DNA of 64,000 nucleotides, taken from the NCBI GenBank assembly GCA_964471325.1, contig CAYYFL010000008.1, positions 20,879 to 84,878 of the forward strand, written 5' to 3'. A program made the translations under genes and the position numbers. Numbering within the stretch: the first letter of the stretch is position 1; each line of letters opens with the position of its first letter. Shown one piece after another: positions 4,607 through 62,574 of this stretch. The notes below the pieces were generated by a model. That model had not been told where the DNA came from. It saw only the letters and a list, made by a program, of their open reading frames with translations, and ran no database searches. The stretch is from an uncultured Planctomycetia bacterium. Its GTDB lineage: Bacteria; Omnitrophota; Gorgyraeia; Velamenicoccales; Velamenicoccaceae.

Positions 4607-4764
4607 AGTTTTGCAGGCATGGCCTCAGTTGAAAAACGGCCCAGAAGATGACATAATGTGCTGGAATATTTGAAGAAAGGCAAGGGGGGCCATCTTATGC
4701 CGCCGTTCGAAAACCGGGCCTTCAGGGCGGCGGAGGCGGAGATTGATTTTGCGGGAGAAAAAAC

Positions 4765-5067
4765 ATGAAGGGGCCGAAAGTTTACATGGTGATAGAGATC
4801 AAGATCAAAGACAAGGAAAAATACGGCCGGTATGTCGATGAAGTTTATGGTATCGTGCGCCGTCATGGCGGCCGTTATCTGGTCAGGGGCGGCCGCGTCA
4901 CGCCCATGTTCGGAGGCTGGACGCCGGAACGGATGGTTGTGATCGCGTTCGATTCGCTGGAGGATTTAAAGAAGTGTTTCGCGTCTCCAGAATATTCGGC
5001 GGTTGCCCCCCTGAGGGAGACGTCAACCGAAACCAGGTCCGTTATCCTGGAGGGATGCCAGCCATGA
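4765..5067 (+). CDS. DUF1330-family small protein
   Basis: 100-aa dimeric alpha/beta-barrel-type sequence (YMVIEIKIKDKEKYGRY ... VVIAFDSLEDLKKCFASPEY) that I recall as DUF1330. The stop overlaps the next start (ATGA). Confidence 0.6.
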   Translation: MKGPKVYMVIEIKIKDKEKYGRYVDEVYGIVRRHGGRYLVRGGRVTPMFGGWTPERMVVIAFDSLEDLKKCFASPEYSAVAPLRETSTETRSVILEGCQP

Positions 5068-5927: not shown

Positions 5928-5976
5928 TCTTCTGCGGCCGGGGCAAGGGCGGGCCCATGGGGCTCCAGAGGTCGGC

Positions 5977-6696
5977 ATGGACAACAGTTTGAAGATCGAA
6001 AACCTGACGGTGGAAGTGGGCGGCCGGGTGATCTTGGAAAATCTTAACCTGGAGATTTCCTCGGGCAGCACCCTTGTTTTGTTCGGGCCCAACGGTTCCG
6101 GAAAATCCACGTTGATCAAGGCCATCATGGGATTTGAGAATTATGCGATCACCCGGGGGAAGATCGTCTTCGGAGGAGAGGTGATCAACGGTTTGTCGAC
6201 GGATGAACGCGCCAAAAAAGGCATCGGCGTCCTTTTCCAGAACCCGCCGAAGATCAGGGGGATCAAGCTGCGCCAGATGGTGGAACTGGTCACGCGGCGG
6301 CCGGCGCAGGAAGACATCTTTGTCGATAAGCTCAACGTCGGGGAACTGATGGACAGGGACCTTAATGTGAATTTTTCCGGAGGCGAGATGAAGCGTTCGG
6401 AGCTTCTTCAGGTTTTGTCCCAAAAGCCGAAGCTTTTGCTTCTGGATGAGCCTGAATCGGGCGTCGACATCGAAAATATCGCCATGATGGGCAGGGTGCT
6501 CAATGCCTTTATCCGCGAGCATGCCGTGGCCTCGCTCATCATCACGCACACCGGTTATGTCTTGGATTATGTCGACGCCCAACACGCCTGCGTGTTGATG
6601 GACCGCGATATCCGCTGTTATGATGATCCGCGCAAGGTTTTTGAAGACATCCGTCAATTCGGTTATGAAAAGTGCCGCACCTGCCGGGGACAATGA
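5977..6696 (+). CDS. sufC: Fe-S cluster assembly ATPase SufC
   Basis: Walker A GPNGSGKST, signature FSGGEMKR, Walker B LLLLDEPESGVD, H-loop ITHTG. Translationally coupled (ATGA) to a SufB/D-family gene. Confidence 0.9.
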   Translation: MDNSLKIENLTVEVGGRVILENLNLEISSGSTLVLFGPNGSGKSTLIKAIMGFENYAITRGKIVFGGEVINGLSTDERAKKGIGVLFQNPPKIRGIKLRQMVELVTRRPAQEDIFVDKLNVGELMDRDLNVNFSGGEMKRSELLQVLSQKPKLLLLDEPESGVDIENIAMMGRVLNAFIREHAVASLIITHTGYVLDYVDAQHACVLMDRDIRCYDDPRKVFEDIRQFGYEKCRTCRGQ

Positions 6697-11349: not shown

Positions 11350-11350
11350 G

Positions 11351-11725
11351 ATGGAAAAGAAAAGAGTGATGGTCGTGGATGATGAACAGGATTTTCTTAA
11401 GATAACGAAAATCAACCTGGAGCAGACGGGCCGTTTTGAGGTCGTGACGGTATCGGATGCAACCGGCATCGTGTCTCTGGTGAAGTCTTTTTGTCCCGAC
11501 GTGATTCTTCTCGATATCCTGATGCCGAAGACAGGGGGCGTCGAGGCGTGTAAAATGCTGAGCACGGATCCTGCGGCAAAGGATATTCCCGTGATCGTGA
11601 TCTCGGCGCTTGATACAAAGAAGGATAGGCTTGCCATGAAAGAGTTGGGCGTTGTTGATTTTCTTGTAAAACCCATAGAAATGGATGAGTTGATTTCCAG
11701 AATTGAACAGGTGCTGGAGGGATGA
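11351..11725 (+). CDS. single-domain response regulator (receiver only)
   Basis: VMVVDDEQD, VILLDILMPKTGG, DFLVKPI. Starts 2 nt after the kinase stop. Confidence 0.9.
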   Translation: MEKKRVMVVDDEQDFLKITKINLEQTGRFEVVTVSDATGIVSLVKSFCPDVILLDILMPKTGGVEACKMLSTDPAAKDIPVIVISALDTKKDRLAMKELGVVDFLVKPIEMDELISRIEQVLEG

Positions 11726-12420
11726 TGGCAAAAGGACGGCCGCGGCGCCTTGAAAATCCGAAAAAAATGCAAAGATATATCACGCCTGCGGCCATGCAAC
11801 GGTTGGACCGGCTGGCCGAGGAGAAATACGGCCTTCCGTCTTTGATCCTGATGGAGAACGCCGGCCGCAGCGCCGCCGAAGCGGTAGCGCGGCTGACCAG
11901 GGGCCAGAAGAGACGGGTGGCTTGCATTTGCGGCCGCGGCAACAACGGCGGCGATGGTTTTGTCGCCTGCCGCCATCTCATGAATAAGGGTATCGGTGTC
12001 GAGGCATTCGTGATGGATGGGGCGAAGGGGTTGACGGATGACGCCCGTCTCAACAGGGACATCCTCAAGAGATGGGGTTGTCCTGTCCACCGGATCGCCA
12101 CGACCGCAGATATCCGGACCTTGCGTCGAAGCCTTAAACGTTGCGCCTGTGTCGTTGATGCTGTCTTCGGTATCGGTTTTAGGGGCGCGCCCAGACCTCC
12201 TTACGATGAGGTGATCGCCGCCGTCAATGCGTCCGGCAGACCCGTTGTTTCGCTGGATGTCCCTTCAGGTCTCGATGCGTTGACAGGGCGCGCCCCCGGC
12301 GCCTGCATCCGTGCCTCCGTGACCGTGACGTTCGGATATCCCAAAACAGGCCTTGTCCGTCACGACGGCCCTTTTTACGCGGGTCGCATCCTTGTCGCAG
12401 ACATTTCCCTGCCCCGATAG
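11722..12420 (+). CDS. nnrE: NAD(P)H-hydrate epimerase (YjeF N-terminal domain only)
   Basis: LMENAGRSAAEA, CGRGNNGGDGFV, VVDAVFGIGF and SLDVPSGLD motifs of the YjeF_N/AI-BP family. No carbohydrate-kinase (NnrD) half is present. Confidence 0.8.
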   Translation: MMAKGRPRRLENPKKMQRYITPAAMQRLDRLAEEKYGLPSLILMENAGRSAAEAVARLTRGQKRRVACICGRGNNGGDGFVACRHLMNKGIGVEAFVMDGAKGLTDDARLNRDILKRWGCPVHRIATTADIRTLRRSLKRCACVVDAVFGIGFRGAPRPPYDEVIAAVNASGRPVVSLDVPSGLDALTGRAPGACIRASVTVTFGYPKTGLVRHDGPFYAGRILVADISLPR

Positions 12421-27420: not shown

Positions 27421-27594
27421 TTATGCGGACAATTCTAGCATGGCTTTCTTCGCGCATCCTGTTGGACCATGAGCGCGTTGCACCCTTTTCCCGCGTCAGC
27501 TCTTGCGGTAGCCTTTTCCAAGCCTTCTCCCGAAGGCTACCGCATGTTTTCTTCCACCCCACCCCCGCCAGCCAGGCGGCCAATAGAAAGGCAG
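27421..27594 (+). repeat. left arm of 174-nt inverted repeat (IR-L)
   Basis: Reverse complement of 56792-56965. By manual alignment the central ~148 nt are identical. GC-rich. Ends 4 nt before ATG 27599. Confidence 0.9.
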
Positions 27595-27598
27595 GATC

Positions 27599-28366
27599 AT
27601 GAAACAAGGTAGGAACACCAAAGAAGAACAAACGCGCAGGATTAAACTTCTGGTTGGCTTTCTATTTACTTTCAGATATGCCACAAGAACCCAGTTGGAG
27701 ACATTCATTCAGTTGATCGTAAATATATCTCATACGCACTGGTTGGTAGATTACTCGCTCAAGAAAGGCTTTGTCAGCGTTTACTACGAACCTGTATTAA
27801 AAACGAAAATCTACTATCTGGGCCCCAAAGGCAAGCAACTAATCTCCCATGAGGCTATGATCGAACATTACCACTTTGAGAAAAGCTATGCTGGGATTAA
27901 TACTTTCGCCCATCAGAATGCCGTGGTTGAGGCCTTCTTCATGCTGAAAAGTCATCTTAATATCCAGGAATGGATCTGCGAATGGGCCTTGCGGGTAGGA
28001 AAAGAGCGCCGTGAAAAGATACCCGATGGATTGCTCGTTTTCCCGGATGGGACAAAGGCAGCCCTGGAGGTAGAGACTAGGTACAAAAAGCTAGATGTTT
28101 TAAGATATTTCGTCAAAAGATACCACTATGACATCACAAGGATCTCCAGATATGACTGCGTTTTGGTTATTTCCGCAAGCAGATTGAATTACGAAGGCCT
28201 GAAAACCCGCTTATACAACATAGCTCCTGAGCTTTGCGCGAGCAGGTTCTTCTTGAGCGACCTTGGCATGCTTGAGCAGGGGATGTGCCTTTATCAGAAC
28301 AAATTGATTCACCTAGAAGATGCCTTTGGATTATTAAGGCAAAATGCGGGGGCAAGCCATGAATAA
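27599..28366 (+). CDS. replication-relaxation (Replic_Relax, PF13814-like) family protein; candidate non-canonical relaxase/accessory
   Basis: N-terminal winged-helix-like part (FRYATRTQLETF). NTFAHQNAVVEAF and IPDGLLVFPDGTKAALEVETRYKK (PD-(D/E)xK-like) follow the Replic_Relax pattern. Adjacent to the coupling-protein gene. Confidence 0.6.
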   Translation: MKQGRNTKEEQTRRIKLLVGFLFTFRYATRTQLETFIQLIVNISHTHWLVDYSLKKGFVSVYYEPVLKTKIYYLGPKGKQLISHEAMIEHYHFEKSYAGINTFAHQNAVVEAFFMLKSHLNIQEWICEWALRVGKERREKIPDGLLVFPDGTKAALEVETRYKKLDVLRYFVKRYHYDITRISRYDCVLVISASRLNYEGLKTRLYNIAPELCASRFFLSDLGMLEQGMCLYQNKLIHLEDAFGLLRQNAGASHE

Positions 28367-52365: not shown

Positions 52366-54039
52366 ATGAAGAAGAAATCACAGATTAAGCAATTGGAATT
52401 ACCATTCAAGGTTAATAAGGAAGTCGTTAGCCATTTGAGTTTGGGCTTATACAGAAATTTCGCAAGAGCGATTAAGGAACTGATCTCTAATGCATACGAT
52501 GCTGGTGCCACAGAAGTTAAAATCAAGCTGGATCTCGATAAGGCAGAGATTATTGTGAGGGATAACGGCCATGGGATGAGTCTCGAGGATATCGAAAATA
52601 AATTTCTTACAATTGGTTTTGTAACTTCTCCATCTGACAAACCAGATGAACTCGGAAGATATCGAATAGGCACATTTGGGATAGGTTGTCTTTCTGTTTT
52701 TCCATATTGCGATACTATCCATGTAATAACAAAAAAACGAGACAATGACGAATTAATTGAGCTAAATATTGTAACGCAGCGTTTTTTCAGTGGGGTACCA
52801 TCTGATATTGACAAAGAAAAGGCACAATGTATTATTCATAAAAGCGATTTACCCAAAAAAGAGGGGGAAACAATCATATCTCTGAAAAACATAAAACCTC
52901 ACCTAATTAAAGAGCTGCGACAGAAACGAGGCTCTGGTTGGTCCAGCATAGATAAGTTTAGCGGTTTTGAAAAATTTAAATGGACACTGAGTCAATATGC
53001 GCCAATTGAGTTTTCTTCGGATCATAAAGAATTACATGATTTTTTCAGCGTGTCTAAAAGAGTCTCCATGAGACTATGGCTTGATGGAGAAGAGCTTTTT
53101 CGGAATATTCCTGAAAATATGGAAATCCTTGAAAAAGGAGAAGAAAAATTTGGGAAAGTCGTAGTTAAATATGTTATTACAACATCAAAAAAACCGGTCG
53201 AGCCAGAGGAAGCAAGAGGGCTGCAAGTCAGACTCAGAGATGTCGCAGTGGGATTGCCAACGGATTTTGAGGTTACAAAATTTACTGGCAAAGTTCCAGG
53301 GAAATTGAATTATTTATCAGGAGAAGTCTGCATTATGGAGGGTCTTGATTCAGCGCTTATGATTGACAGAGATAATTTTTCGTATACAGAAGAAGTGGCT
53401 GAAATGCAGGAGTTTTTCAGAAAGAAGCTGATTAAATGGAACGACGTTCAGGAAAAGTGGGCTTCAAAAGACAAGGATATTTATGAAGCATTGATGCCGC
53501 TGAAAGATTCTGAGCCGATAATCAATGAATTGAAAAAAGCAAAAATAATCCATTTCTCAAAAGAAAGATTAAGGCTTCCTAGGGAGTCTTTAGTAAAAAG
53601 AGTCAAAGACAAGTTGATCTCGCCAGCTGAAACAATAAAAAAGGCGCTGTCTGATAAGACGGATTTTAAGATCATCTCAAAGAAGCAAAGTGTTAAGGCT
53701 AATCAGCCTGCATTGGAAATCAAGCAAAAAGAAAAATCAATAGTTATTTATGAGGATCATCCTGAATTTTCTGAAATAATTGAAGTTGAAAACAAGAAAT
53801 TTTCTGTCCTTTACGATGAGTGGAATTACAAGAAAACCCAGTATGCATTGTGCAAATTTGAGAAAGACGAAAAGAACGTTGTTTTTAACTCATCTCATCC
53901 TCTCTTTAAGAGCAAAATAAATGATGAGATTATTAAGAGAATAGCCCTTGGTTTCCTCTTGATTGCTAAGAATAGGAAGGATGGGGGAAAATTGCTCAGT
54001 GAATTAAATGGCCTCCTTGAAGATGTGTTCAAGAGATAA
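52366..54039 (+). CDS. GHKL-superfamily ATPase (HATPase_c_3 / MORC-paraMORC-like)
   Basis: Bergerat-fold boxes: N-box KELISNAYDAGA, G1 VRDNGHGMS, G2 IGTFGIGCLS. The ~380-aa C-terminal region is unassigned. Confidence 0.8.
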   Translation: MKKKSQIKQLELPFKVNKEVVSHLSLGLYRNFARAIKELISNAYDAGATEVKIKLDLDKAEIIVRDNGHGMSLEDIENKFLTIGFVTSPSDKPDELGRYRIGTFGIGCLSVFPYCDTIHVITKKRDNDELIELNIVTQRFFSGVPSDIDKEKAQCIIHKSDLPKKEGETIISLKNIKPHLIKELRQKRGSGWSSIDKFSGFEKFKWTLSQYAPIEFSSDHKELHDFFSVSKRVSMRLWLDGEELFRNIPENMEILEKGEEKFGKVVVKYVITTSKKPVEPEEARGLQVRLRDVAVGLPTDFEVTKFTGKVPGKLNYLSGEVCIMEGLDSALMIDRDNFSYTEEVAEMQEFFRKKLIKWNDVQEKWASKDKDIYEALMPLKDSEPIINELKKAKIIHFSKERLRLPRESLVKRVKDKLISPAETIKKALSDKTDFKIISKKQSVKANQPALEIKQKEKSIVIYEDHPEFSEIIEVENKKFSVLYDEWNYKKTQYALCKFEKDEKNVVFNSSHPLFKSKINDEIIKRIALGFLLIAKNRKDGGKLLSELNGLLEDVFKR

Positions 54040-54047
54040 GGGTTACT

Positions 54048-54773
54048 ATGGCAGATTTAGACACGCTGAGAGGGCAACTAATAGAGGAGCTGTGGCTTCC
54101 TGTTGTTAAAGAAGCAGGCAAACATTTTTATGGTAGGCGAAAGAATAAAAGAATGAGGCTTTTTACGCTCACAGATGGAGTTCTTTTCGGCGAACTGATA
54201 AGATTTGAGGGGGAGGGCTTGATACAAAGAGGAGATGCTGTATTGTGGGTTAGCAATATGATTAAAGCAGTCAGGGCGGAAACAGAGTCAAGAGGCTCTG
54301 TTTATAGCGGCTCAATATGCGACGAGGAAGTGTTAGGCACAGTATGCCCCTTAAGATCCTTGTTTCCATGCGATATTTTGAATCTTGATTTTTCATCACA
54401 AGATTATAATTCTAATAATCAAAGAATTGAGAAAGAGATAGGGAAAACAGAACAATTTTTGTGTTTGCAGAACCAAAAGCGCAATCCTGGGTTCGTAGTC
54501 TTGCAGAGTACTGTTATTGATGCAGAGGTTTTAGATAGGGATGCTATCAAAAATTTTTCTGATTCTATGCACGAGAATGACTGGGGTGGTTTGACAATAG
54601 ATGGCTTTCCTCAACTTGTTGCAGACAATGGGCAAAAGAGGAATTTTATCAAACAAGTATTGCAATCCTTGGGTCAGAAATATAAATACAGAGCTTTAAA
54701 AATAACAGATGCTGTTAAGATAATTGATGCCAACCAGCAACTAATTTCAATAGCTGGTATTTTTACGAGGTAA
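54048..54773 (+). CDS. hypothetical protein (possible Rossmann/methyltransferase-like fold)
   Basis: Tightly packed in the operon. LFPCDILNLDFSSQD resembles the D.i.LDpfG-type motif of some MTase-fold proteins. No confident family. Confidence 0.45.
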   Translation: MADLDTLRGQLIEELWLPVVKEAGKHFYGRRKNKRMRLFTLTDGVLFGELIRFEGEGLIQRGDAVLWVSNMIKAVRAETESRGSVYSGSICDEEVLGTVCPLRSLFPCDILNLDFSSQDYNSNNQRIEKEIGKTEQFLCLQNQKRNPGFVVLQSTVIDAEVLDRDAIKNFSDSMHENDWGGLTIDGFPQLVADNGQKRNFIKQVLQSLGQKYKYRALKITDAVKIIDANQQLISIAGIFTR

Positions 54774-54777
54774 CAAT

Positions 54778-55563
54778 ATGAAAACCTTCAGATCAGACAG
54801 ATTGCCTAGATTGACGAAAATTATGTATGACAGCCAACTCAGGCTGAATACTAAAAATTGGGAAGATACACTAAAAGCGAACCATCAAGAAGTTGAGCGG
54901 TTGTTGGAAATGATAAGCATTTTCGATTCCTGGAGAACTTCTTTGGAACGAGCTTACGGTGATGTAGCTAGGGATTTAATTAAAGAAACATTTATGGATG
55001 CTTATATGTCTGTGCATTTTGCTTGTATGGCCTTATATAAGCAAGCCCATGTATCTTTGAGGACTGAGCTTGAGACAGCTTTAAGGTTAGTATATTTTTC
55101 TAGCCATCCCGTTGAATTCAAGTGGTGGAGGGATGATAAAGATTATTTTCATGGGAGACATGTTTGGGGAGATAAATTTGATTATTTCAGAAATTTAGAA
55201 TATTTTCAGCGCTTTGAACAGCGGGCAGTTAAATTATTTGAAACAGAAAATAGGAATAATCCAAATAATATAGGGAAACTATATAAAATTTTATCGAAGT
55301 ATGTGCACAGCGGCTTTCCAGCTTTTTTAACAACCATGCAAAGCGTTGCTCCAGTATATAAACGAGCAGACCTTAATCTTTGGATTGTTAATTTCAAAGA
55401 GGTCCAAAAATGCATTAATACTATTCTTGCTTTGGGTTTTTCTGCTGAATTTAAAGCCTTTGATGCTATTGTACAAAGGAATGTCTTAAGAGTGATCAGA
55501 GACAGAAATTATAAGCGTGGTTTAAAACAGGTGTTAGGGTTACGAATTCAAGGACGTATATAG
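54778..55563 (+). CDS. hypothetical all-alpha protein (weak HEPN/Abi-like features)
   Basis: Tightly packed in the operon. Contains an Rx6H string (RLVYFSSH) and LSKYVHSG. No confident family. Confidence 0.45.
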   Translation: MKTFRSDRLPRLTKIMYDSQLRLNTKNWEDTLKANHQEVERLLEMISIFDSWRTSLERAYGDVARDLIKETFMDAYMSVHFACMALYKQAHVSLRTELETALRLVYFSSHPVEFKWWRDDKDYFHGRHVWGDKFDYFRNLEYFQRFEQRAVKLFETENRNNPNNIGKLYKILSKYVHSGFPAFLTTMQSVAPVYKRADLNLWIVNFKEVQKCINTILALGFSAEFKAFDAIVQRNVLRVIRDRNYKRGLKQVLGLRIQGRI

Positions 55564-55566
55564 AAA

Positions 55567-56658
55567 ATGGGACAAGAAGCGATCGAAAATCAATTGGATA
55601 TTTTGCATAAGGCTCCTTCTACTAGATATCAGGGAAGCAAGAGAAGCATATTAGCTTGGATATACGAAAACCTAAAAGACATTCAGTTCGAAAGTGTCCT
55701 TGATGGCTTTGGGGGGACGGGAAGCGTCAGTTATTTATTTAAACTGATGAATAAGAAAGTAACGTTCAATGATATCCTTCCGTCAAACCATATGACGGGC
55801 ATTGCTCTTATTGAGAATGATTGCATAACTCTAGATGAAGATGATTTAGAGTTTATATCCCACCGAAATGGCTTCAACTATCCGACTTTCATCGAAGACA
55901 CCTTTAAAGGAATATATTACACTTCTGGTGAGAATAGGTTGCTTGATGTGTTGGCCTTAAATATAAGGATGCTTTCTGAAAAATATCAAGGCGATGTTTT
56001 AGCCAAGAAACAGGCGTTGGCTTATTATGTTTTGTTTCAGGCTTGTTTATGTAAACGGCCTTTCAATCTCTTTCATAGAAAAAATCTCTCACTTAGGACT
56101 GCGAGAAACATAAAGAGAACATTTGGAAATAAGAAGACTTGGAATACTCATTTTGAAACATTTCTAAAAAGATTTAATGCAGAGGTTTCCCAGAAAGTCT
56201 TTTCCAATGGTCTTGTAAATAAAGCCATTTCCCAGGACATTGTGGCTATAAAAAAGGAAGATTTTGACCTTGTGTATTTAGACCCACCCTATGCAAGAGC
56301 AGATGAAAAAACACCAAAAGATTATCACGAGCTGTATCATTTTCTCGACGGTTTTGTTGATTATGATAATTGGCCGAAAAATATAAATTTAAACACAAAT
56401 AATAAGAGGATGTTTAAGCAAAAAAACCATTGGGATGAAGGAAAGATTGAAGACAACTTTGATGCTTTGTTCAGGAAGTTTAAGGATTCAATAATTGTTG
56501 TCTCCTACGGAGAGCCCGGATTCCCTTCCATTTATAAAATCAAACAGCTTCTTTCGAAATATAAGTCAAAAGTAAAAATTGCCAAAAAGGAATACAAATA
56601 CAAGTTGAATCACCGGAACGGGCACGGCTTATATGAGGTTTTAATAATAGGGGTTTAG
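55567..56658 (+). CDS. Dam-type (D12 class) N6-adenine DNA methyltransferase
   Basis: N-terminal YQGSKRSILAWI, SAM motif DGFGGTGSVS, catalytic LVYLDPPYA. Confidence 0.85.
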   Translation: MGQEAIENQLDILHKAPSTRYQGSKRSILAWIYENLKDIQFESVLDGFGGTGSVSYLFKLMNKKVTFNDILPSNHMTGIALIENDCITLDEDDLEFISHRNGFNYPTFIEDTFKGIYYTSGENRLLDVLALNIRMLSEKYQGDVLAKKQALAYYVLFQACLCKRPFNLFHRKNLSLRTARNIKRTFGNKKTWNTHFETFLKRFNAEVSQKVFSNGLVNKAISQDIVAIKKEDFDLVYLDPPYARADEKTPKDYHELYHFLDGFVDYDNWPKNINLNTNNKRMFKQKNHWDEGKIEDNFDALFRKFKDSIIVVSYGEPGFPSIYKIKQLLSKYKSKVKIAKKEYKYKLNHRNGHGLYEVLIIGV

Positions 56659-56791: not shown

Positions 56792-56965
56792 CTGCCTTCC
56801 TATTGGCCGCCTGGCTGGCGGGGGTGGGGTGGAAGAAAACATGCGGTAGCCTTCGGGAGAAGGCTTGGAAAAGGCTACCGCAAGAGCTGACGCGGGAAAA
56901 GGGTGCAACGCGCTCATGGTCCAACAGGATGCGCGAAGAAAGCCATGTTGAAATTGTCCGTATAA
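56792..56965 (-). repeat. right arm of 174-nt inverted repeat (IR-R)
   Basis: Reverse complement of 27421-27594. Lies between the methylase and the PIN-like gene. Confidence 0.9.
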
Positions 56966-57038: not shown

Positions 57039-57536
57039 ATGAATATGGATAATGAGGAAAGAGTGCCTTACAGATTGCTCTATGCGATCTTTCTTGATTC
57101 CTGCGCCTTTTATCCGTCGCAAAAAGATCAAAAATTAGCGAGGAATAAATTGTGGGAGTTTGAGGATAAAGGGCTTATTAAAACAATGGAAAAAGCAGAA
57201 GCTACTAATGAAGAAATTGAACGGGCCCCTAAAGAACTTAGAAAAAGAATAGAGAGGGAGTCCAGAATAATTAATTGCGATTCGATAGAAACCAGGGAAG
57301 ACCGAGAAGCATTAAGTGAAATAGAGAAACTGTTATTTTCTAATAAACAAAAATTAGCGGACAACGAAAAGCGAGATGCTAGAAATATATTTTGTGCCAA
57401 GAAAATGGGATGCGACTTATTTGTTACAGTTGATAATTGTCATATTCTAAAGAGAGCAGAAATAATAAAGGAAAAATTCAGATTTCGTGTCGTCATGCCA
57501 ACCCAATGCGTAAAAATAATTTCAGAGGAATTGTAA
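57039..57536 (+). CDS. PIN-like domain protein (putative nuclease), uncertain
   Basis: N-terminal AIFLDSCAF and C-terminal GCDLFVTVDNCHIL resemble the first and last acidic motifs of PIN domains. GAAGGAG RBS. Confidence 0.4.
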   Translation: MNMDNEERVPYRLLYAIFLDSCAFYPSQKDQKLARNKLWEFEDKGLIKTMEKAEATNEEIERAPKELRKRIERESRIINCDSIETREDREALSEIEKLLFSNKQKLADNEKRDARNIFCAKKMGCDLFVTVDNCHILKRAEIIKEKFRFRVVMPTQCVKIISEEL

Positions 57537-57617
57537 AAAATGACCTGTTCTTGATTTTGCAGTTTTTGTTTGGCCGCAGTAAGTAAGTCCTCCTTTTTTT
57601 TCCTCGCCAAAAATACT

Positions 57618-57820
57618 CAAGGCTTTAATTTCGTCAACAAAATTCAGGAAATAATTCGTCTCCACTCTTGTGGTCTGCCTCAAGAGTGACGTGTCCCTTC
57701 GGGGAGTCCTCAATTTTTTCCTCGAATCCAGGAAGGTTCGCTTACTCCATCCGTCGTTCGCTCTCCTTCGGCCAAGCCCTGTTTTATTGACTAAACCGCC
57801 GTTTGTGGTCTGCCTCAAAC
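57618..57820 (+). repeat. structured intergenic module, copy A
   Basis: Direct repeat of 58990-59190. Contains two hairpins with the invariant loop TGGTCTGCCT (57657-57691, 57800-57821). Confidence 0.85.
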
Positions 57821-57870
57821 GCCTTTAAAGGCCTTGAGTTGCTTTTTGGCGTAAAAGAAAGGAGGACCAC

Positions 57871-58176
57871 ATGCGTCCAAGAACAAAAAAACAGGAACAA
57901 AATCAAGAAAGGAAGGAGGTGAGCAAGATGTTCGAAGTCTCCAGGATCCATCGTATCGAAGGAAACGATACTCTGAAGGCCTTTGTGGATATCAAAGTCG
58001 CTGACAGCGTTTTGATCAAAGGCTTGAGGGTCATGGCCGGCAAGAATGATACCTTGTTCGTCGCCATGCCGTCCCAGAAGGCGGAGGATGGCAAATACTA
58101 TCCTACCGTCAAGCCTCTTACCAAAGAGGCTAACCAAGAGCTGCAGGATGCAGTTCTTGCTGCCTATAACGAATAG
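57871..58176 (+). CDS. spoVG: SpoVG-family nucleic-acid-binding protein with possible 19-aa basic N-extension
   Basis: MFEVSRIHRIEGNDTLKAFVDIKVADSVLIKGLRVMAGKNDTLFVAMPSQKAEDGKYYPTVKPLT follows the SpoVG consensus. Both ATG 57871 and ATG 57928 have strong SD sequences. Confidence 0.8.
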   Translation: MRPRTKKQEQNQERKEVSKMFEVSRIHRIEGNDTLKAFVDIKVADSVLIKGLRVMAGKNDTLFVAMPSQKAEDGKYYPTVKPLTKEANQELQDAVLAAYNE

Positions 58177-58275
58177 GCAGTGAAAAAAGCTGCGCTATCG
58201 GCTATACGGGCACTTTAAAAAATCAAACCCAAGGCTAAAATTCCTTTTCTTTTTTTCCGCGATATCTTAATTAAA

Positions 58276-58308
58276 AACCCTCTGCAATATAAATTTTTGC
58301 AGAGGGTT
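58276..58308 (-). terminator. rho-independent terminator (minus strand; possibly bidirectional)
   Basis: AACCCTCTGCAA / TTGCAGAGGGTT 12-bp perfect stem, 9-nt loop. On the minus strand it is followed by TTTTTAATTAA. Confidence 0.65.
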
Positions 58309-58351
58309 GGAAAATTAAGCTCCACTATTATTCAAATCGCTCTTGCGCTTA

Positions 58352-58510
58352 TTAGGGCTTTCGCAATACCTGGCTCGCAGATATCTTTACCACTTTCTCA
58401 TTCCGCCACACCGTTAGAGGCCGTCCACTGCGTTTGTGGTCCTCAACGACCTCTCGAACCGCTTCTTTGAGCGCCCTAAAAGCCTTTGCCTGCATAGTTT
58501 TTTTGGTCAT
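58352..58510 (-). CDS. small protein (52 aa) partnered with zeta-like ATPase genes
   Basis: Manual translation: MTKKTMQAKAFRALKEAVREVVEDHKRSGRPLTVWRNEKVVKISASQVLRKP. It starts 5 nt after the ATPase stop. I recall this type of small ORF next to zeta-like AAA ATPases. Confidence 0.4.
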   Translation of the reverse strand: MTKKTMQAKAFRALKEAVREVVEDHKRSGRPLTVWRNEKVVKISASQVLRKP

Positions 58511-58514
58511 TGCC

Positions 58515-58754
58515 TTACCTCAATGTTCTCATTATTTTTTCAAATAAAACTTTATCAAGGATCTCTGTTTTGCCGTTTTTTTCCTGTGCGATCAATCGGG
58601 GCACGGCATCGGCATTATTAAACAACAGCCACGTATCTGCCAATGGTTTATAGTAGCTCAAACATTTCGCGTAATCAGGCAAAAACTTCTTCGCAAATGT
58701 CGTCTTGCCGGAGCCGTTCGGGCCGGCGATGACATAAACATTTTTGGTTTTCAT
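58515..58754 (-). pseudogene. internally deleted zeta-toxin-like P-loop ATPase remnant
   Basis: N-terminal VYVIAGPNGSGKTTFAKKF is joined directly to a C-terminal-type tail ADTWLLFNNADAVPRLIA. It is 79 aa against about 190 aa in intact family members. Confidence 0.55.
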
Positions 58755-58779
58755 GCGTTAAAATTATATCTCAAAGAAA

Positions 58780-58812
58780 AACCTCCTGCAACAAATTATG
58801 ATGCAGAGGGTT
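58780..58812 (-). terminator. terminator-like hairpin, paralogous to 58276-58308
   Basis: AACCTCCTGCA / TGCAGAGGGTT (one mismatch). On the minus strand it is followed by TTTTTCTTT. Confidence 0.45.
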
Positions 58813-58946
58813 AGAAAATCAGCTCTTCCAGAGGAGCTCAAAGAGAAAGATCGGCAAGTTAAGCTCTTGCGGCCTGACGCGCCTTTTTATCCCTCAGCAC
58901 CCTGTTTCTCACCGTCTTTGTCGTTTTCTTTCCTGGTTTTTCAGGT

Positions 58947-58978
58947 ATGGCTTCGTCTCCTTTCTGTTTGTTTTCGCT
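58947..58978 (-). repeat. inverted copy of the RBS/start region of gene 59247 (anti-RBS arm of module B)
   Basis: ATGGCTTCGTCTCCTTTCTG(TTTG)TTTTCGCT is the reverse complement of 59221-59248 apart from a 4-nt insertion. Weaker similarity continues to about 58850. Confidence 0.85.
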
Positions 58979-58989
58979 TTTGTAACCGT

Positions 58990-59190
58990 AAGCCCTGATT
59001 TTCGTCAATAAAATCACGAAAATAATTCGTCTCCGCTTTTGTGGTCTGCCTCAAAAGCAGCTTCGCCCCTTCGGGGAGTCCTCAATTTTTTTCGCGACCC
59101 AGGAAGGCTCTCGCGCTCCGTCCGTCGTTTGTTCGCCTTCGGGCAGGCCTGTTTTTTTGACAAAAACCGCCGTTTGTGGTCTGCCTCAAC
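58990..59190 (+). repeat. structured intergenic module, copy B
   Basis: Direct repeat of 57618-57820, with hairpins at 59035-59058 and 59167-59194 carrying the same loop TGGTCTGCCT. Confidence 0.85.
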
Positions 59191-59246
59191 CGGCTTCAGG
59201 CGCTTAGGTTAAATTCTCCAAGCGAAAACAGAAAGGAGACGAAGCC

Positions 59247-59531
59247 ATGAAAAACACGAACAAGAAAGAAAACGAACAAAAATTCGACGAAGGGGTGTTG
59301 AGGGCTGACGGCTGCATGATGAGGCATAACCAGCCGCGTCAGGCGGAATTCCGGACGCGCGAAGAGGATTTTCCCGAATCTTCCTTCGGAAAGTCAGCGT
59401 ACTGGGAAGAGAGAAGACTGCTCAACCGCGTCCATGAGCTCATGGCTATGGGTTTTAAGATCAGGCCTGAGCAAACCCTGGAAGAGTTTGTCCAGGCGCA
59501 TGAGGATGCGTTTACAGAGGAGGCGCTATGA
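59247..59531 (+). CDS. hypothetical protein (94 aa)
   Basis: GAAAGGAG RBS. The N-terminal K/N/E/Q-rich leader (MKNTNKKENEQK) is similar to the optional leader of the spoVG-like gene (MRPRTKKQEQNQ). Confidence 0.45.
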   Translation: MKNTNKKENEQKFDEGVLRADGCMMRHNQPRQAEFRTREEDFPESSFGKSAYWEERRLLNRVHELMAMGFKIRPEQTLEEFVQAHEDAFTEEAL

Positions 59532-60045: not shown

Positions 60046-60067
60046 TCAAAGAAAGGAGGTGAATACT

Positions 60068-60298
60068 ATGCAATTAAACGATCTGAATGGGAAAACCACC
60101 ATCAAAGTCGCAGGAGAAGAAGTCGAGGTCTGTGCTTCTGATTCTGTCAAGGACACCTTAAAAAGGCTCCTTGAGGAAAAGGGCATCGATTCCTTCACGA
60201 TTCTCGTTGACGGCAATGAGGTGGCCTCAACGAACGATCTGCCAGAGACGTTTGCAGATCACGAAATCGAGGTGCAAAGATACGTCAAGGCAGGCTAA
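60068..60298 (+). CDS. ThiS/MoaD-like beta-grasp ubiquitin-like protein ending in Ala-Gly (PRTRC protein C-like)
   Basis: 76 aa. The pattern IKVAGEEVEV...VKDTLKRLLEEKGI..FTILVDGNEV...L.ETFADHEIEVQRYVKAG-stop follows the ThiS/MoaD layout. GAAAGGAGG lies 8 nt before ATG 60068. Confidence 0.6.
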   Translation: MQLNDLNGKTTIKVAGEEVEVCASDSVKDTLKRLLEEKGIDSFTILVDGNEVASTNDLPETFADHEIEVQRYVKAG

Positions 60299-60363
60299 AA
60301 GAAAGGAGAAAGAACGCGGAAAAGAGGGGAGCGACTCCCCTCTTTTCCTTTTTAGAGGTCAAA

Positions 60364-60966
60364 ATGATTGATGAAAAACTAATACACAACGCAAGGCCGG
60401 CATCCAGAATCATAGAAGAGATTGACGACTCCTGGCGCCAATTTGTTGAGAACTTAAAAGACCAGGCGTTCAAAGTCCCCTTTAAAGGAGACTATAGGTG
60501 TTGTGTCAAGAATGACTTTTTTCACGTTGAAGCCTACGTAGGTCCTCTTGTGATCGATAAGCTCTACGATGGCCGCAACACCTATCTGCTCAAGACCCCG
60601 ATTAAGCATGAGGCCTTTACGCTCTATGGCGAATATGACCAGGCCGGGGACTTTTGCAACTTTGTTTCAGACCCTGAGATCGGCTGCCACTATCTGGCCA
60701 TGAGCAATATGGACGCCGGCCGCAAGATCTGCACAGGAGACCTCCAGGTTAACAACGCGAGCCTCAATTCGCTTGAAGCGCTCAAAACAATGGCATTAGA
60801 GGTTATCAAGTCTTTCAGGCTCATTAATCTGACATCTTTAGGCACCGTGATATTGCCTGAAGAGCATTCTATCCTTAAAGATATCTTATCTGATAAGTCT
60901 AAAGGCCCGGATATGAAAACAAAGAGCCTGCTAGACGCAAATTTGATCGAACCATTATTAAAATAG
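60364..60966 (+). CDS. candidate E2-like (UBC-fold) protein (PRTRC protein B-position)
   Basis: Sited between the Ubl and E1 genes. HYLAMSNMDAGRKICTGDL resembles the UBC active-site stretch HPN(I/V)...G.IC. Confidence 0.4.
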   Translation: MIDEKLIHNARPASRIIEEIDDSWRQFVENLKDQAFKVPFKGDYRCCVKNDFFHVEAYVGPLVIDKLYDGRNTYLLKTPIKHEAFTLYGEYDQAGDFCNFVSDPEIGCHYLAMSNMDAGRKICTGDLQVNNASLNSLEALKTMALEVIKSFRLINLTSLGTVILPEEHSILKDILSDKSKGPDMKTKSLLDANLIEPLLK

Positions 60967-60977
60967 GAGAAGAAACA

Positions 60978-61922
60978 ATGCCTCAAGGAGCTATTTACTC
61001 GCGGCAGGAGTTAATCGACCAACTGGACATACCGGAAATCGCTACCGTCATAGGGTGCGGCGGCACAGGATTCTGGACCGCGGTGTTTCTGGCGATGAGC
61101 GGGGTGGAAGAATTGGTCCTGGTGGATCGCGATATCATCGAGATATCCAATCTTAACAGATTGCTCTTGGAAGAGCGGCACGTGGGAAAGAAAAAGATCG
61201 AAGTTCTAAAAGAAATCATCTCAGGTGTTAGAAAATCAACAAGGATCGAAACCCATGACATGCGCATTGAAAAATCAGCGGACTGCCAGGTCCTGCGTGG
61301 GAAAGTATTCTGCTGTACAGATAATTTGAAAAGCCAGCAGCTTATCTGTGCATATGCCAAGAAAAACGACTTAACCTATCAGAGAATAGGCTATGACGGC
61401 ACGGTTTTGAACGTCTCCAGGGCCTTTCCCTTGTCTTTTAAAGAAGTCGAAGGCCAGGAAGGCTATACGTTTACCCCTTCTTGGGTCGTTCCAGCGGCAC
61501 TGGCAGCCGCAGCCGGCGTCGCCTCGGTCATGTATAAGCGGCTGTCTTTGATGGAAGATTTGGGCAAGTTGCACATACAGCATTCTTCCTTTGTCCCTGA
61601 GAAGATCTTGGATGAAGCCAAGCAGGAACGTGAAGATTACATCACAGATCATATCGATGATTATCTTCCCAGCGGTTACGGCTATTGCGACGACTGCAGC
61701 CATTGCGATGACTGCAATAGGGTGGACCCAGAAGATCATTGCTCAGACTGCGACAAGGAATACACCCAAGCTGATCTTGACGAAAAAATCGCTGAAGAGA
61801 AAGAAGAATGGCTGAAAGAAACAATCGAAGAGATCAAATCAGGTGAGATCTCCAGGGAAGAATTAAAAGAAGCTTTGAAGCAATGGTTTAAAATCACTCA
61901 AAGGAGGCCAAAAAATGAATAA
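60978..61922 (+). CDS. ThiF/MoeB/E1-like adenylating enzyme with Cys-rich acidic C-terminal tail
   Basis: ATVIGCGGTGFWTAVFLAMSGV (nucleotide loop) and LVDRDIIEISNLNRL (ThiF signature). Tail YCDDCSHCDDCNRVDPEDHCSDCD. Confidence 0.85.
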   Translation: MPQGAIYSRQELIDQLDIPEIATVIGCGGTGFWTAVFLAMSGVEELVLVDRDIIEISNLNRLLLEERHVGKKKIEVLKEIISGVRKSTRIETHDMRIEKSADCQVLRGKVFCCTDNLKSQQLICAYAKKNDLTYQRIGYDGTVLNVSRAFPLSFKEVEGQEGYTFTPSWVVPAALAAAAGVASVMYKRLSLMEDLGKLHIQHSSFVPEKILDEAKQEREDYITDHIDDYLPSGYGYCDDCSHCDDCNRVDPEDHCSDCDKEYTQADLDEKIAEEKEEWLKETIEEIKSGEISREELKEALKQWFKITQRRPKNE

Positions 61923-62574
61923 TATCCAAAACAACGCAAGCAATATCTTAAACGTCAATATCAAAAATTATACGGACTGCGGATGGTGTTCGGATAAGGC
62001 CAACGAGGAGATCCTGAATATCCCTTGGTTCATCTGGAGCCAGTGGCTGTATATTTCCCGGAGGATGGGCAAGAAAGAGTGGGGAGCGATATTTTGGGTC
62101 AAGGATAACACCGTAACCGGTTTTAAGATTCCCAAACAGGAAGTCAACTCGGTTGAGTGCGCATTCAAAGAGGAATTGGGCGGGGACGGGATTATCCATT
62201 CCCATCATGATATGGGTGCTTTTCATTCGACTCAGGATGACGCCCACGCGCGCAATCTTTATCAGTATTCGATAGTTCTTTCGAATTCAGATGGAAGCGT
62301 CTGTACGAAAAGACTCAAACTGCCCTGCGGAGCTTTCGGCTATATGCAGGTGCGGCTTGGCATCGTTGATCTGCCGGAAATCGATCTGGAAAAAATCGGC
62401 GAGAAAAAGAGAGAAGCGACCTTGGAGCAATCCGAAGAGGAATTATGCCGACAGGCCCAATGCGACGAGCTGCAAATGCAGTGTGAAGAATGCATGAGGT
62501 CTGATTGCCATGGTTGCGAGATTTTTCTTGCTATGCAGAAAATAGAGGCCGGAATGTTTGGGACCGGGTTTTAG
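61915..62574 (+). CDS. JAB/MPN (JAMM) metalloprotease
   Basis: Exact JAMM spacing HxH-x7-S-xx-D in IIHSHHDMGAFHSTQDD, with an upstream Glu (FKEELGG). Cys-rich C-terminus. Overlaps the E1 stop by 8 nt. Confidence 0.85.
   Translation: MNNIQNNASNILNVNIKNYTDCGWCSDKANEEILNIPWFIWSQWLYISRRMGKKEWGAIFWVKDNTVTGFKIPKQEVNSVECAFKEELGGDGIIHSHHDMGAFHSTQDDAHARNLYQYSIVLSNSDGSVCTKRLKLPCGAFGYMQVRLGIVDLPEIDLEKIGEKKREATLEQSEEELCRQAQCDELQMQCEECMRSDCHGCEIFLAMQKIEAGMFGTGF

Follow-up and report, generated by a model that had tools for sequence, protein, structure and literature searches.

In the window, by which we mean the whole 64-kb stretch of DNA that was analysed, a conjugative element carries two mutually homologous repeats, one ahead of each of two successive gene sets. 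We give about an even chance to the explanation that each copy, a functional analogue of Frpo and ssi elements but of a new sequence class, takes shape as a promoter only while its DNA is single-stranded. The two-copy repeat reported by a sequence-only reading of this DNA is borne out: a global alignment of core 57618-57825 with core 58990-59196 (208 and 207 nt) has 172 identical positions, or 82.7% identity. Direct-repeat families span three pairs of segments:

57619-57686 / 58990-59057, direct repeat, 82%
57695-57725 / 59067-59097, direct repeat, 94%
57728-57825 / 59099-59196, direct repeat, 78%

The 16-mer TTGTGGTCTGCCTCAA occurs four times in the window, twice per copy, versus 0.54 expected, and a count of four was reached in none of 100 shuffles; the 25-mer CCCTTCGGGGAGTCCTCAATTTTTT occurs twice versus 0 expected. 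No further copies exist elsewhere in the 64 kb.

The unit had been described as a non-coding module of about 200 nt. This is too narrow for the unit as a whole, which is not purely non-coding: long inverted repeats flank each core and run into the ORFs that follow.

57544..57912, copy 1 (type 1), complete hairpin: 5' outer arm, core and 3' outer arm; inverted repeat I1
57544-57628 / 57825-57912, outer arms of copy 1
57587-57626 / 57828-57867, inverted repeat flanking the core of copy 1
57858..57873, plus strand, SD AAGGAGGA and first ATG (57871) of a SpoVG-like ORF, within the 3' arm of the basal stem
57871..58176, plus strand, SpoVG-family gene (Pfam SpoVG, E = 9.6e-21, residues 25-101)
58872..59344, copy 2 (type 2), complete hairpin: inverted repeats I4, I5, I23 and I24
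58891-58998 / 59196-59304, outer arms of copy 2
58872-58899 / 59317-59344, outermost pairing of copy 2
58947-58969 / 59226-59248, inverted repeat I4 of copy 2, 23 nt, 100% complementary
59233..59249, plus strand, SD (AAGGAG) and ATG (59247) of a 94-aa ORF, within the 23-bp perfect stem
59247..59531, plus strand, 94-aa gene, family unassigned, N-terminus highly conserved

The outer arms of the two copies are non-homologous. In both, the upstream flank pairs with the start of the next ORF: its SD, its ATG and its first 14-33 codons. A strong SD and an ATG do follow each core, as had been claimed, and AGAAAGGAG is invariant in 15 of the 15 aligned copies. The SpoVG gene has a second in-frame start at 57928, with a strong SD of its own, just beyond the hairpin. 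The K/N/E/Q-rich leaders of the two ORFs are indeed alike, but they are not a separate feature: their likeness stems from the pairing of the flank with SD, ATG and early codons, and each leader is the A-rich 3' arm of its hairpin, with its mirror in a T-rich 5' arm.

Inside the outer arms, the cores carry conserved side hairpins:

57663..57688, hairpin H1 of copy 1, CACTCTTG-TGGTCTGCCT-CAAGAGTG
57728..57772, hairpin H3 of copy 1, CCAGGAAGG ... CCTTCGG, inserted on the 3' half where helix P3 gives way to P2
57797..57824, hairpin H2 of copy 1, inserted on the 3' half, with the TTGAC helix (P2) on one side and the basal stem on the other
59035..59058, hairpin H1 of copy 2
59167..59194, hairpin H2 of copy 2

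A covariation analysis, which had been proposed as a check, backs the fold: over the related copies, 97.8% of the cells are paired and double changes occur at 9 pairs, a number reached by none of 500 shuffles, while slid controls give at most one double-changed pair. The stem of H1 in copy 1 shows covariation between copies together with compensating indels, and its GG-NNTG-CC loop varies at NN only. H3 is helix 8 of the covariation model, with double changes at two pairs (172:205 and 174:203); H2 is helix 10, with covarying pairs 240:259 and 241:258, and in copy 1 it is flanked by TTGACT (57787-57792) and the basal stem. The pairing of TTT(T)CGTCAA(C/T)AAAA with a TTGAC(T/A) segment, already noticed by eye, turns out to be helix 4, with 13 pairs that are 100% paired and two unpaired positions identical in every copy. 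H1 and H2 are conserved as TTGTGG-NNTG-CCTCAA. The T-runs were considered as intrinsic terminators and rejected: CCTTCGG is the 3' strand of the covarying H3, and the T-run is the 3' strand of P2.

Both copies fold strongly, as RNA and as single-stranded DNA, and rank among the strongest folds of the window in a sliding-window fold with a 40-nt step. The full hairpins reach -88.3 kcal/mol (copy 1, 57540-57915) and -129.2 kcal/mol (copy 2, 58868-59348) as minus-strand DNA. The 301-nt core of copy 1 folds at -65.8 kcal/mol on the minus strand, with z = -9.2 versus -8.7 on the plus strand, and the 316-nt core of copy 2 at -80.9 kcal/mol, with z = -10.2 versus -8.7. By energy, the minus strand folds better than the plus strand in all nine copies compared. 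The background of the window favours the plus strand (mean asymmetry +2.9, sd 3.65), whereas the windows of the module lie between -7.2 and -9.3, in the lowest 1%. Plus-strand A.C cells, which are G.T on the minus strand, form the majority of the non-Watson-Crick cells, 14 versus 5 and 29 versus 15, a bias that amounts to about 8-10 events versus 5 and is not significant alone. Energy and wobble bias both favour folding of the minus strand, the template of the downstream genes.

The folds could also act at the RNA level, an alternative that we consider possible but rather unlikely. The whole hairpin would then be a long mRNA 5' leader, and its 5' arm would block the SD and the start codon. Translation would have to wait for the stem to open or be cleaved, with RNase III or an H1/H2-binding factor as possible agents. 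SD, ATG and first codons lie within a stem that is a perfect 23 bp in copy 2 and 40 nt in copy 1, which is just what a translational lock needs; the RNA folds have z-scores of -6.9 and -7.5; the covariation suits both strands equally; and no terminator lies between the 165-aa gene and copy 1, so that a read-through RNA would contain the hairpin. However, the asymmetry points to the minus strand, in nine of nine copies and in the lowest 1% of the window, with A.C exceeding G.U on the mRNA strand. The only compensatory change in the CCC-TTC-GGG hairpin, a C>T/G>A double change in L122/L124, keeps the closing pair of the triloop and destroys a UUCG tetraloop; a reading of CCCTTCGGGG as such a tetraloop is weakened by it. 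The RNA-level reading also lacks an Rfam match even at E = 10: Rfam 15 has no match in the whole window at gathering score, and a search of 57400-59400 at E up to 10 gives scattered weak matches far below gathering scores, and no family matches the cores consistently. It leaves unexplained a conserved -35/-10-like pair, described below, which is kept with different hexamers in diverged copies. At two related loci (L040 and L116), moreover, a bidirectional terminator lies 5' of the type-2 copy, and no plus-strand promoter is predicted past this terminator. The two readings are compatible, an RNA-level block serving as a second layer to a single-strand promoter.

The sequence-only reading had offered a cis-regulatory cassette, either a structured 5' UTR or an Frpo/ssi-type element. 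The conjugative setting, the repeated placement before gene sets and the large single-strand fold all stand; the single-strand promoter is the better supported of the two options, because the strand-asymmetry tests favour folding of the minus, or template, strand over folding of the mRNA. Kinship in sequence with Frpo/ssi fails: 57587-57870, searched with blastn (word size 11) in 72,556 plasmid records, including F (NC_002483), has no match at E <= 0.01. Samuel et al. (2024) are said to have used a BLAST criterion for sequence similarity to Frpo/ssi.

That reading had also found no convincing -10 box. A -35/-10 pair does fit on the other arm, when this is read on the minus strand:

57610..57637, minus strand, sigma-70-like promoter of copy 1: TTGACG (57637-57632), 16-nt spacer, TATTTT (57615-57610)
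58979..59008, minus strand, promoter-like site of copy 2: TTGACG (59008-59003), 18-nt spacer, TACAAA (58984-58979), a weak -10

The first site, on the distal arm, scores 9/12 in a promoter scan in which consensus -35/-10 matches arise by chance at about 1 per kb, and TTGACG-16-TATTTT is also present in L040 and L116. The type-2 site fails the scanner, whose rule demands a T at position 6; its -10 reads TAGAAA or TACGAA in relatives, giving a conserved TAnnAA in which the final T is absent. At the same place on the minus-strand arm, one diverged copy has TTGATA-16-TATACT (10/12) and a second TTG(C)ACA-17-TATTGT. The minus-strand folds place the -35 in paired sequence and the -10 at a bulge or internal loop: in copy 1 every base of the -35 is paired and the -10 has its A unpaired, facing a 3-nt template bulge, and in copy 2 the -10 faces a template-side bulge of varying sequence and length. 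The non-template side of the bubble is conserved, while its template side varies in sequence and length. Because TTGAC is part of a stem, it appears in the 3' arm of each strand; what decides between the strands is the -10, the side on which the insertions lie and the asymmetry statistics. The invariant stretches, namely the H1/H2 loops, AATAATTCGTCTCC and GGGAGTCCTCAATTTTTT, lie outside what the promoter model explains.

In the single-strand promoter that we propose, conjugation would bring the minus strand, template of all the genes here, into the recipient, where it would fold into a hairpin of 370-470 nt. On its 3' arm, helices P3, P2 and P1 would follow one another without unpaired linkers and form a continuous 'non-template' strand, with, in this order, an A/T-rich stretch, TTGAC(G/T), 16-18 nt and a -10-like hexamer beginning with TA. 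H3 and H2, inserted in the template arm, would be extruded from it; in duplex DNA they part TTGAC from the sequence downstream, so that no rightward promoter would exist there. Host RNA polymerase would bind the pseudo-duplex, with the -10 at the helix distortion, start the RNA about 20 nt 5' of the ATG and exit the base of the hairpin into the gene, yielding a short leader with its SD free. Synthesis of the complementary strand would remove the hairpin and switch the promoter off. There is probably a second layer: because an mRNA started upstream contains both arms, the SD and ATG of read-through mRNA would be locked in a stem of 23-40 bp, which would restrict expression to the moment of entry. 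The same transcripts could prime complementary-strand synthesis, as Frpo does.

The same minus-strand -35/-10 is also an ordinary leftward promoter in double-stranded DNA, its sites being intact in the linear sequence. It is thus conceivable, if unlikely, that this is its role: it would make a regulatory RNA of about 110-150 nt, ended by nearby minus-strand terminators, and the inverted repeat would let this small RNA mimic the mRNA leaders or pair with them. The minus strand of the window has terminator-like hairpins at 58870-58854 and 58838-58821, and that of L040 has one at 7309-7291. However, L040 and L116 have no minus-strand gene to the left, so the RNA would be non-coding or antisense to co-oriented genes; nor would it be a classical antisense repressor of the downstream gene, since it has the same sense as the target SD region. 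A leftward promoter also leaves unexplained the 370-470 nt of intrastrand pairing, the covarying H1-H3, and the minus-strand bias of the whole unit, including the part past the promoter on the other arm.

An integrated conjugative element is present in the window, with a MOBC-type Replic_Relax/MobC protein, T4CP, TraC, TraE, TrbI, TraU, TraF, TraH, TraG_N and a type IV pilus. All genes, tra genes included, are co-oriented, with the minus strand as template, and the leading and tra genes of F are likewise co-oriented; by analogy with F, the minus strand may be the transferred strand. A candidate oriT is a 174-nt element that occurs in inverted copies (27421-27594 and 56792-56965); if it is the oriT, its orientation could reverse the strand argument. 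The motif GCGCATCCTGTT in this element was considered as a MOBP-like nick site and dropped, the relaxase candidate being MOBC-type and the motif not being conserved in L040. The 94-aa gene heads a set that continues with a 60-aa gene, DUF6876, a Ubl-like gene, a 200-aa gene, a ThiF-type E1 and a JAB gene; its eight homologues are all found in the same gene order. More distant homologues of SpoVG adjoin genes for ArdA, DUF932, an orphan methyltransferase and Ubl/E1 proteins, all typical contents of leading regions.

Relatives were gathered through neighbouring proteins. Beyond this element, related copies are carried by Ca. Velamenicoccus archaeovorus and by metagenome contigs, each time within the same gene block and solely at the same two syntenic positions. 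In a genome scan with a two-loop pattern, the only true locus is that of Ca. Velamenicoccus archaeovorus LiM, and two further matches, in coding repeats, are due to chance. All 73 metagenome loci matching a 22-base two-loop pattern are chance matches, none having the TTG...CAA closure or the central motifs; so are the 39 single matches of the loop 15-mer in viral contigs, where the 18-mer GGGAGTCCTCAATTTTTT has no match. A non-homologous but analogous-looking hairpin in L128 (4670-4974, minus-strand TTGATA-16-TAAAAT) was kept as a lead only, with no canonical-start ORF in its 3' arm.

A two-copy repeat with flanking inverted repeats might suggest a MITE-like mobile element or a neutral duplication without function. 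This seems to us extremely improbable: the 'terminal inverted repeats' are not the same in the two copies and are formed by the starts of neighbouring genes; the copies of the relatives occupy two syntenic positions, with none elsewhere in the window, in plasmids or in viral contigs, and the 73 metagenome matches being all due to chance; and covariation means selection on pairing.

Among known systems, F and IncI1 carry repeated homologous single-stranded DNA promoters 5' of successive leading operons, and non-homologous classes exist (PMC9849209, PMC12672017, PMC11541004). Like the first class, Frpo1/Frpo2 of F and ssi1-3 of ColIb-P9/pESBL, the copies described here are mutually homologous repeats of about 300 nt before successive conjugative gene sets, with a large stem-loop in the template strand of the genes, candidate -35/-10-like boxes in the stem and establishment-type genes downstream; as in F, a small gene pair lies between the two copies (PMC9849209). 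Unlike that class, they share no sequence similarity with it, belong to a host of the phylum Omnitrophota rather than Enterobacteria, and have a multibranched fold with three conserved side hairpins instead of one long imperfect stem. The Frpo2 hairpin of F ends about 47 nt 5' of the ssb ATG, whereas the stem here extends over the SD and start codon and as many as 33 codons. The published -35/-10 of Frpo2 could not be placed in its computed fold, and a simple scanner finds none on either strand.

Single-stranded DNA promoters fall into several unrelated sequence classes, and those of classes 2 and 3 in IncI1/IncF stand 5' of ardA/klcA and M.EcoGIX and include ssp2 of F; like the copies here, they came from a homology-independent search, as very stable hairpins 5' of leading operons with reconstituted -35/-10 (PMC12672017, PMC13478746). 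In contrast to the copies here, they have mapped 5' ends in transconjugants. Of the 316-nt and 301-nt folds given above, that of copy 2 (-80.9) passes the -75 kcal/mol criterion used for these classes; that of copy 1 (-65.8), at a locus of lower G+C, falls short of it.

The copies also resemble the single-strand origins ssoA/T/U/W of rolling-circle plasmids and Sso1 of ICEBs1, non-coding sequences of about 150-300 nt that are recognised by RNA polymerase on single-stranded DNA, in being strand-specific and highly structured. The hallmarks of ssoA are CS-6 in the terminal loop, RSB and a rolling-circle Rep gene. A site of this kind, recruiting RNA polymerase or primase only for priming of the complementary strand, with no role in the expression of adjacent genes, is in our view a very unlikely explanation; a variant would make the hairpin a structural roadblock to complementary-strand synthesis. 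Large strand-biased hairpins would suit such a site no less than a promoter; Frpo combines the two activities, and ssp2 of F stalls double-strand conversion (PMC7690428; bioRxiv 10.64898/2026.01.09.698686). However, CS-6 (TAGCGT/A) is absent from both strands of both hairpins and there is no rolling-circle Rep nearby. The stems are built from the starts of two different genes: because these type-specific stems use SD, ATG and early codons, the element, in two copies fused to gene starts, is tied to these starts and not to arbitrary intergenic sites. RBS-sequestering leaders, such as anti-SD stems and the fold-back of hok mRNA, also pair SD and start codon with a distant upstream segment, but the stems here are far longer and more perfect, are biased to the DNA template strand and match no Rfam family.

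To our knowledge, the demonstrated single-strand promoters all come from IncF and IncI plasmids of Enterobacteria; those elsewhere are predictions. Omnitrophota are ultra-small, largely uncultured and partly predatory bacteria. If the single-strand promoter is real, zygotic induction from the entering strand would be an ancient general solution rather than a peculiarity of enterobacterial plasmids. Two design principles are suggested: hairpin insertions in the template arm would break the promoter in duplex DNA, and an SD and ATG inside the stem would silence read-through mRNA. The element would also be a handle for locating early, probably anti-defence genes, here a SpoVG-like protein, DUF6876 and the ubiquitin-like conjugation set.

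A further conjecture, which we regard as doubtful, is that the cassette is a two-state switch whose TTGAGG-hairpins are bound by a dedicated single-strand-binding factor, the nucleic-acid-binding SpoVG-family protein being a candidate. In single strands, the promoter would act and yield a short translatable leader; in the double-stranded element, every read-through mRNA would be untranslatable, and expression of SpoVG, the 94-aa gene, DUF6876 and Ubl-E1-JAB would be strictly zygotic. If the three conserved TTGAGG-hairpins of the transferred strand were bound by the SpoVG protein encoded downstream, it would exert a feedback on the promoter or on double-strand conversion.

The module that stands before the SpoVG-family gene (copy 1, or type 1) and again before the 94-aa gene (copy 2, or type 2) is a genuine, non-random repeat, as the sequence-only reading had proposed. 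Core 57618-57825 (208 nt) and core 58990-59196 (207 nt) agree at 172 positions (82.7%), and the repeat families of the window pair 57619-57686 with 58990-59057, 57695-57725 with 59067-59097, and 57728-57825 with 59099-59196. The motif TTGTGGTCTGCCTCAA occurs four times in the window, twice per copy, against 0.54 expected occurrences. The strong Shine-Dalgarno (SD) sequence and the ORF reported downstream of either copy are also where they were said to be, the ORF starting with an ATG. The size of about 200 nt, however, holds for the core only. The core of copy 1 is bracketed by the inverted repeat 57587-57626/57828-57867, and that of copy 2 by a perfect 23-nt inverted repeat, 58947-58969/59226-59248; in both, it is the downstream ORF's SD and ATG that make up the 3' arm. 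Pairing continues outward, at 57544-57628/57825-57912 in copy 1, and at 58891-58998/59196-59304, then 58872-58899/59317-59344, in copy 2. Since the hairpin arms extend 14-33 codons into the downstream ORFs, the related K/N/E/Q-rich leaders, which are indeed present, are simply the 3' arms of the hairpins, which are rich in A and face 5' arms rich in T. The N-terminus of the 94-aa protein is highly conserved at the protein level, so this arm is probably translated as well.

Both copies lie in a conjugative element whose genes are all on the plus strand, with the sole exception of a two-gene cassette between the copies. The order is:

Left third of the window: chromosomal, metabolic genes, 52-59% G+C
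About 25.9 kb: start of the element, with TraG_N first in its listed gene order
27599-28366, plus strand: MobC/Replic_Relax (MOBC-type) protein, second in order
Next, plus strand: coupling protein, pilin-like, TraE, TrbI and TraC genes
Next, plus strand: type IV pilus set, then TraU, TraF, TraH
After TraH, plus strand: low-G+C cargo with a HATPase_c_3 protein and a D12 methyltransferase
After the cargo: 165-aa gene, copy 1, SpoVG-family gene, two-gene minus-strand cassette, copy 2
After copy 2, plus strand: 94-aa gene, 60-aa gene, DUF6876, small Ubl-like gene, 200-aa gene, ThiF-type E1, JAB protein

The cassette (58352-58754) encodes a 79-aa P-loop fragment and a 52-aa protein, and is bracketed by 54-nt hairpin/terminator repeats at 58262-58315 and 58766-58819 (76% identical). 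The F plasmid offers a parallel, with toxin-antitoxin genes lying between its Frpo1 and Frpo2. Two in-frame start codons of the SpoVG-like ORF, both preceded by a strong SD, fall within 57871-57930: ATG 57871 lies within the hairpin stem, ATG 57928 (SD GGAAGGAGGTGA) a little beyond it, and only past the second does the Pfam SpoVG match start. Two protein isoforms or two expression modes are possible. DUF6876 is followed by a ubiquitin-like conjugation set (60059-62574): the Ubl-like gene, the 200-aa gene (no family match), the ThiF-type E1 and the JAB peptidase. A Bil-like system in the probable leading region of such elements might have an anti-defence or establishment function.

The module has no match in Rfam, in the plasmid collection or in viral contigs, and a pattern scan of metagenomes returned chance matches only. 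The genome scan yielded one true locus, in the Omnitrophota genome of Ca. Velamenicoccus archaeovorus LiM (L040), where the two copies keep their order, one ahead of a SpoVG paralogue and the other ahead of a homologue of the 94-aa protein. The genes concerned there are BU251_02645-02650, and LiM is a member of a limonene-degrading enrichment with metatranscriptomes (PMC12583861). Homologues of that protein led to nine further metagenome contigs (L116-L119, L120-L124), and the short fragments L125 and L126 carry the gene for the 94-aa protein of the window itself. All contigs found in this way have the same gene block and the same two module positions; it is thus hardly credible to us that the module, repeated as it is, should be a mobile or neutral repeat. 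L116 also has TraF and TraH upstream and the same gene order down to JAB; its cargo differs (MNT/HEPN). More distant SpoVG homologues, of about 60% identity, sit beside ArdA, DUF932, an M78 peptidase, a YukD-like Ubl, BilD_N/ThiF and a methyltransferase; among their contigs, L132 has two diverged versions of the module, the first ahead of SpoVG and the second behind DUF932. Both ArdA and DUF932 belong to the classical gene content of leading regions. The F plasmid has a DUF932 gene after Frpo1 (PMC9849209; the F record was also inspected here).

Some smaller traits accompany these loci. The cargo slot between TraH and a second repeated element, described below, is variable: the window (52366-56658, 37% G+C) has the HATPase_c_3 protein, two unknown proteins and the D12 adenine methyltransferase, and L116 (2948-3915) a nucleotidyltransferase/HEPN pair. 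L040 and L116 are without the minus-strand cassette and have one bidirectional terminator (GATCCCCGGCCAGGGGATC) in its place. A conserved motif, AAAGCTG(C/T)(G/C)CTATCGGC(T/G)A(T/G)ACGGG, directly follows the stop codon of the gene preceding a module copy (window 58186-58215; L040 7249-7275), even in the distant L132 (3369-3392). In L040, the region 4660-6525 ahead of the module block has another putative ubiquitin-like set (87-aa, 395-aa ThiF-like and 148-aa proteins, named by eye from translations), together with a type I restriction R subunit and a putative HTH/ImmA-like pair, likewise named by eye; the 8 kb of L040 sequence covered contain no tra genes.

Folding is strong in every form considered. 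Against shuffles, the RNA folds reach z = -6.9 (copy 1) and -7.5 (copy 2), and the single-stranded DNA folds -9.2 and -10.2 on the minus strand, and -8.7 and -8.7 on the plus strand; in a G+C-corrected 300-nt sliding fold of the whole window, the modules rank with the strongest minus-strand folds. Six full type-2 copies were used for a curated structure of 85 pairs:

P1: basal stem, type-specific, including SD and ATG
P2: TTT(T)CGTCAA(Y)AAAA with TTTT(A/T)TTGAC
P3: GRAAATAATT with AATTTTTTYC
H1: terminal hairpin
CCC-TTC-GGG: a further, small hairpin
H2 and H3: side hairpins, H3 being GAAGGC/GCCTTC

In this structure 97.8% of cells are paired and 9 pairs are changed on both sides, while slid controls give at most one double-changed pair; the covariation score is 0.109 against 0.052, and none of 500 shuffles reaches the observed values. 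The pairing of the module's 5' end with a TTGAC-containing 3' segment, already proposed from the sequence, is helix P2 of this covariation-tested structure. P1, P2 and P3 follow each other in the 5' half without unpaired linkers, H2 and H3 being insertions in the 3' half. H1 and H2 have in common TTGTGG-NNTG-CCTCAA, of which NN is the sole variable part, and their outer stems covary, including compensating indels. The basal stems of the two types are unrelated in sequence, with equivalent pairing partners. In the L132 copy after DUF932 (3488-3721), two tandem H1-type hairpins (loops at 3541 and 3575) and an H2 (3700) can be seen; the contig ends within the element.

Watson-Crick covariation does not discriminate between strands, and the folding strand must be read from asymmetric measures. 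The minus strand, template of the downstream genes, is the more stable in 9 of 9 full copies, with RNA and DNA parameters alike. The background of the window runs in the opposite direction: E(minus) minus E(plus) has mean +2.86 (sd 3.65), while the module windows range from -7.2 to -9.3, and a value of -7 or below is reached in only 15 of the 1593 windows. In the type-2 alignment, 14 of the non-Watson-Crick cells are A.C, which the minus strand reads as G.T, and 5 are plus-strand G.T; these counts came from a structure predicted on the plus strand, yet favour the minus strand. The type-2 basal stem has 4 A.C events against 1 G.T, and the outer arms of all copies 29 against 15. Four asymmetric measures, from few events in related copies, thus give moderate evidence that the minus strand folds. 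That the module is an RNA leader and nothing else would suit the RNA folds and the SD and ATG held in P1; the bias to the minus strand speaks against it, and we think this reading unlikely.

The distal arm of copy 1 contains, on the minus strand, TTGACG, 16 nt, TATTTT (57637-57610), a site shared by L040 and L116. In the corresponding position, TTG(C)ACA-17-TATTGT is found in the L132 copy that precedes SpoVG, and TTGATA-16-TATACT, a near-consensus minus-strand promoter (10/12), in the copy after DUF932, it being understood that consensus matches arise by chance at about 1 per kb. Type-2 copies have TTGACG, 17-18 nt, TA(C/G)(A/G)AA, a -10 without the final T. An element active in single-stranded DNA had been suggested with no convincing -10 box; boxes can now be placed on the minus-strand distal arm, the type-2 -10 remaining imperfect. 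In predicted folds every base of the -35 is paired, and the -10 falls at a bulge or internal loop, whose non-template side is conserved and whose template side varies in sequence and length. On the folded minus strand the boxes are oriented towards the base of the stem and the gene beyond it.

Being part of a stem, TTGAC can be read on either strand. The minus-strand boxes also amount, in duplex DNA, to an ordinary leftward promoter, and a small RNA made from it is a rival reading that we rate as improbable, a little below the RNA leader. In the rightward direction the duplex sequence is broken by H2, which keeps TTGAC about 30 nt away from the basal stem, and likewise by H3; a scan of the window, L040 and L116 predicts no rightward duplex promoter, and in L040 and L116 a bidirectional terminator immediately precedes the type-2 copy. 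The reading we put first, at about even confidence, is that the module represents a new promoter class that functions solely in the transferred single strand. RNA polymerase would use the boxes in the folded strand, presumably the transferred one, and start about 7 nt past the -10, giving a leader of roughly 20 nt with the invariant AGAAAGGAG. This promoter is probably combined with an RNA-level lock, by which the stem would block translation of read-through transcripts, and possibly also primes complementary-strand synthesis.

Known systems offer a comparison. Single-stranded Frpo of F is a stem-loop that offers RNA polymerase its -35 and -10 boxes (Masai and Arai 1997, via PMC9849209, PMC7690428); Frpo1 and Frpo2, 92% identical and 5 kb apart, are required for early expression in transconjugants (PMC9849209). 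IncI1 and IncF plasmids have three unrelated hairpin classes, which a search for folds below -75 kcal/mol ahead of leading operons brought to light and whose 5' ends have been mapped in transconjugants (PMC12672017), and Frpo-like candidates are widespread in leading regions (PMC11541004). One hairpin of the IncI1/IncF classes also stalls complementary-strand synthesis (bioRxiv 10.64898/2026.01.09.698686); that the module should have an ssi or roadblock function only seems to us quite improbable. The module resembles the Frpo/ssi promoters (those of F and ColIb-P9) in its repetition, size and strand-specific fold, and probably also in its kind of place and its candidate boxes, and leading and tra genes share one orientation in F as in the window's element. 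Unlike them, it is multibranched, comes from a different phylum, and has no sequence similarity to them in the plasmid-collection search; its stem takes in SD, start codon and early codons, whereas the F Frpo2 fold, computed here, stops about 47 nt before the ssb ATG. Because of these shared traits and differences we file the module as ssDNA-promoter-like: it would work like such a promoter, outside the Frpo/ssi family.

Contig L128 has, at 4670-4974 and upstream of an ArdA-SpoVG pair, a hairpin of about 305 nt that shares no homology with the module. This hairpin has the module's architecture in a different sequence: nested inverted repeats, and a minus-strand TTGATA-16-TAAAAT with the -10 in an internal loop; its 3' arm has no ORF with a canonical start. 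A ubiquitin-like conjugation set is also listed at 9166-11898 of this contig.

The second repeated non-coding element, of about 174 nt, is found at 27421-27594 (plus strand), directly upstream of the MOBC-type relaxase candidate, and, inverted and 97% identical, at 56792-56965 (minus strand), 74 nt upstream of the 165-aa gene before copy 1; the two copies bracket the entire tra block and the cargo. It recurs in L116 (4086-4255), in L117 (5324-5493) and, diverged, in L040 (about 2950-3200). It holds a 13-bp hairpin (GCGGTAGCCTT...AAGGCTACCGC) and a C-rich tail, has no Rfam match, and folds weakly overall (z = -1.6). It may serve as an oriT or as a recombination site, and the way it is oriented matters for deciding which module strand is transferred.
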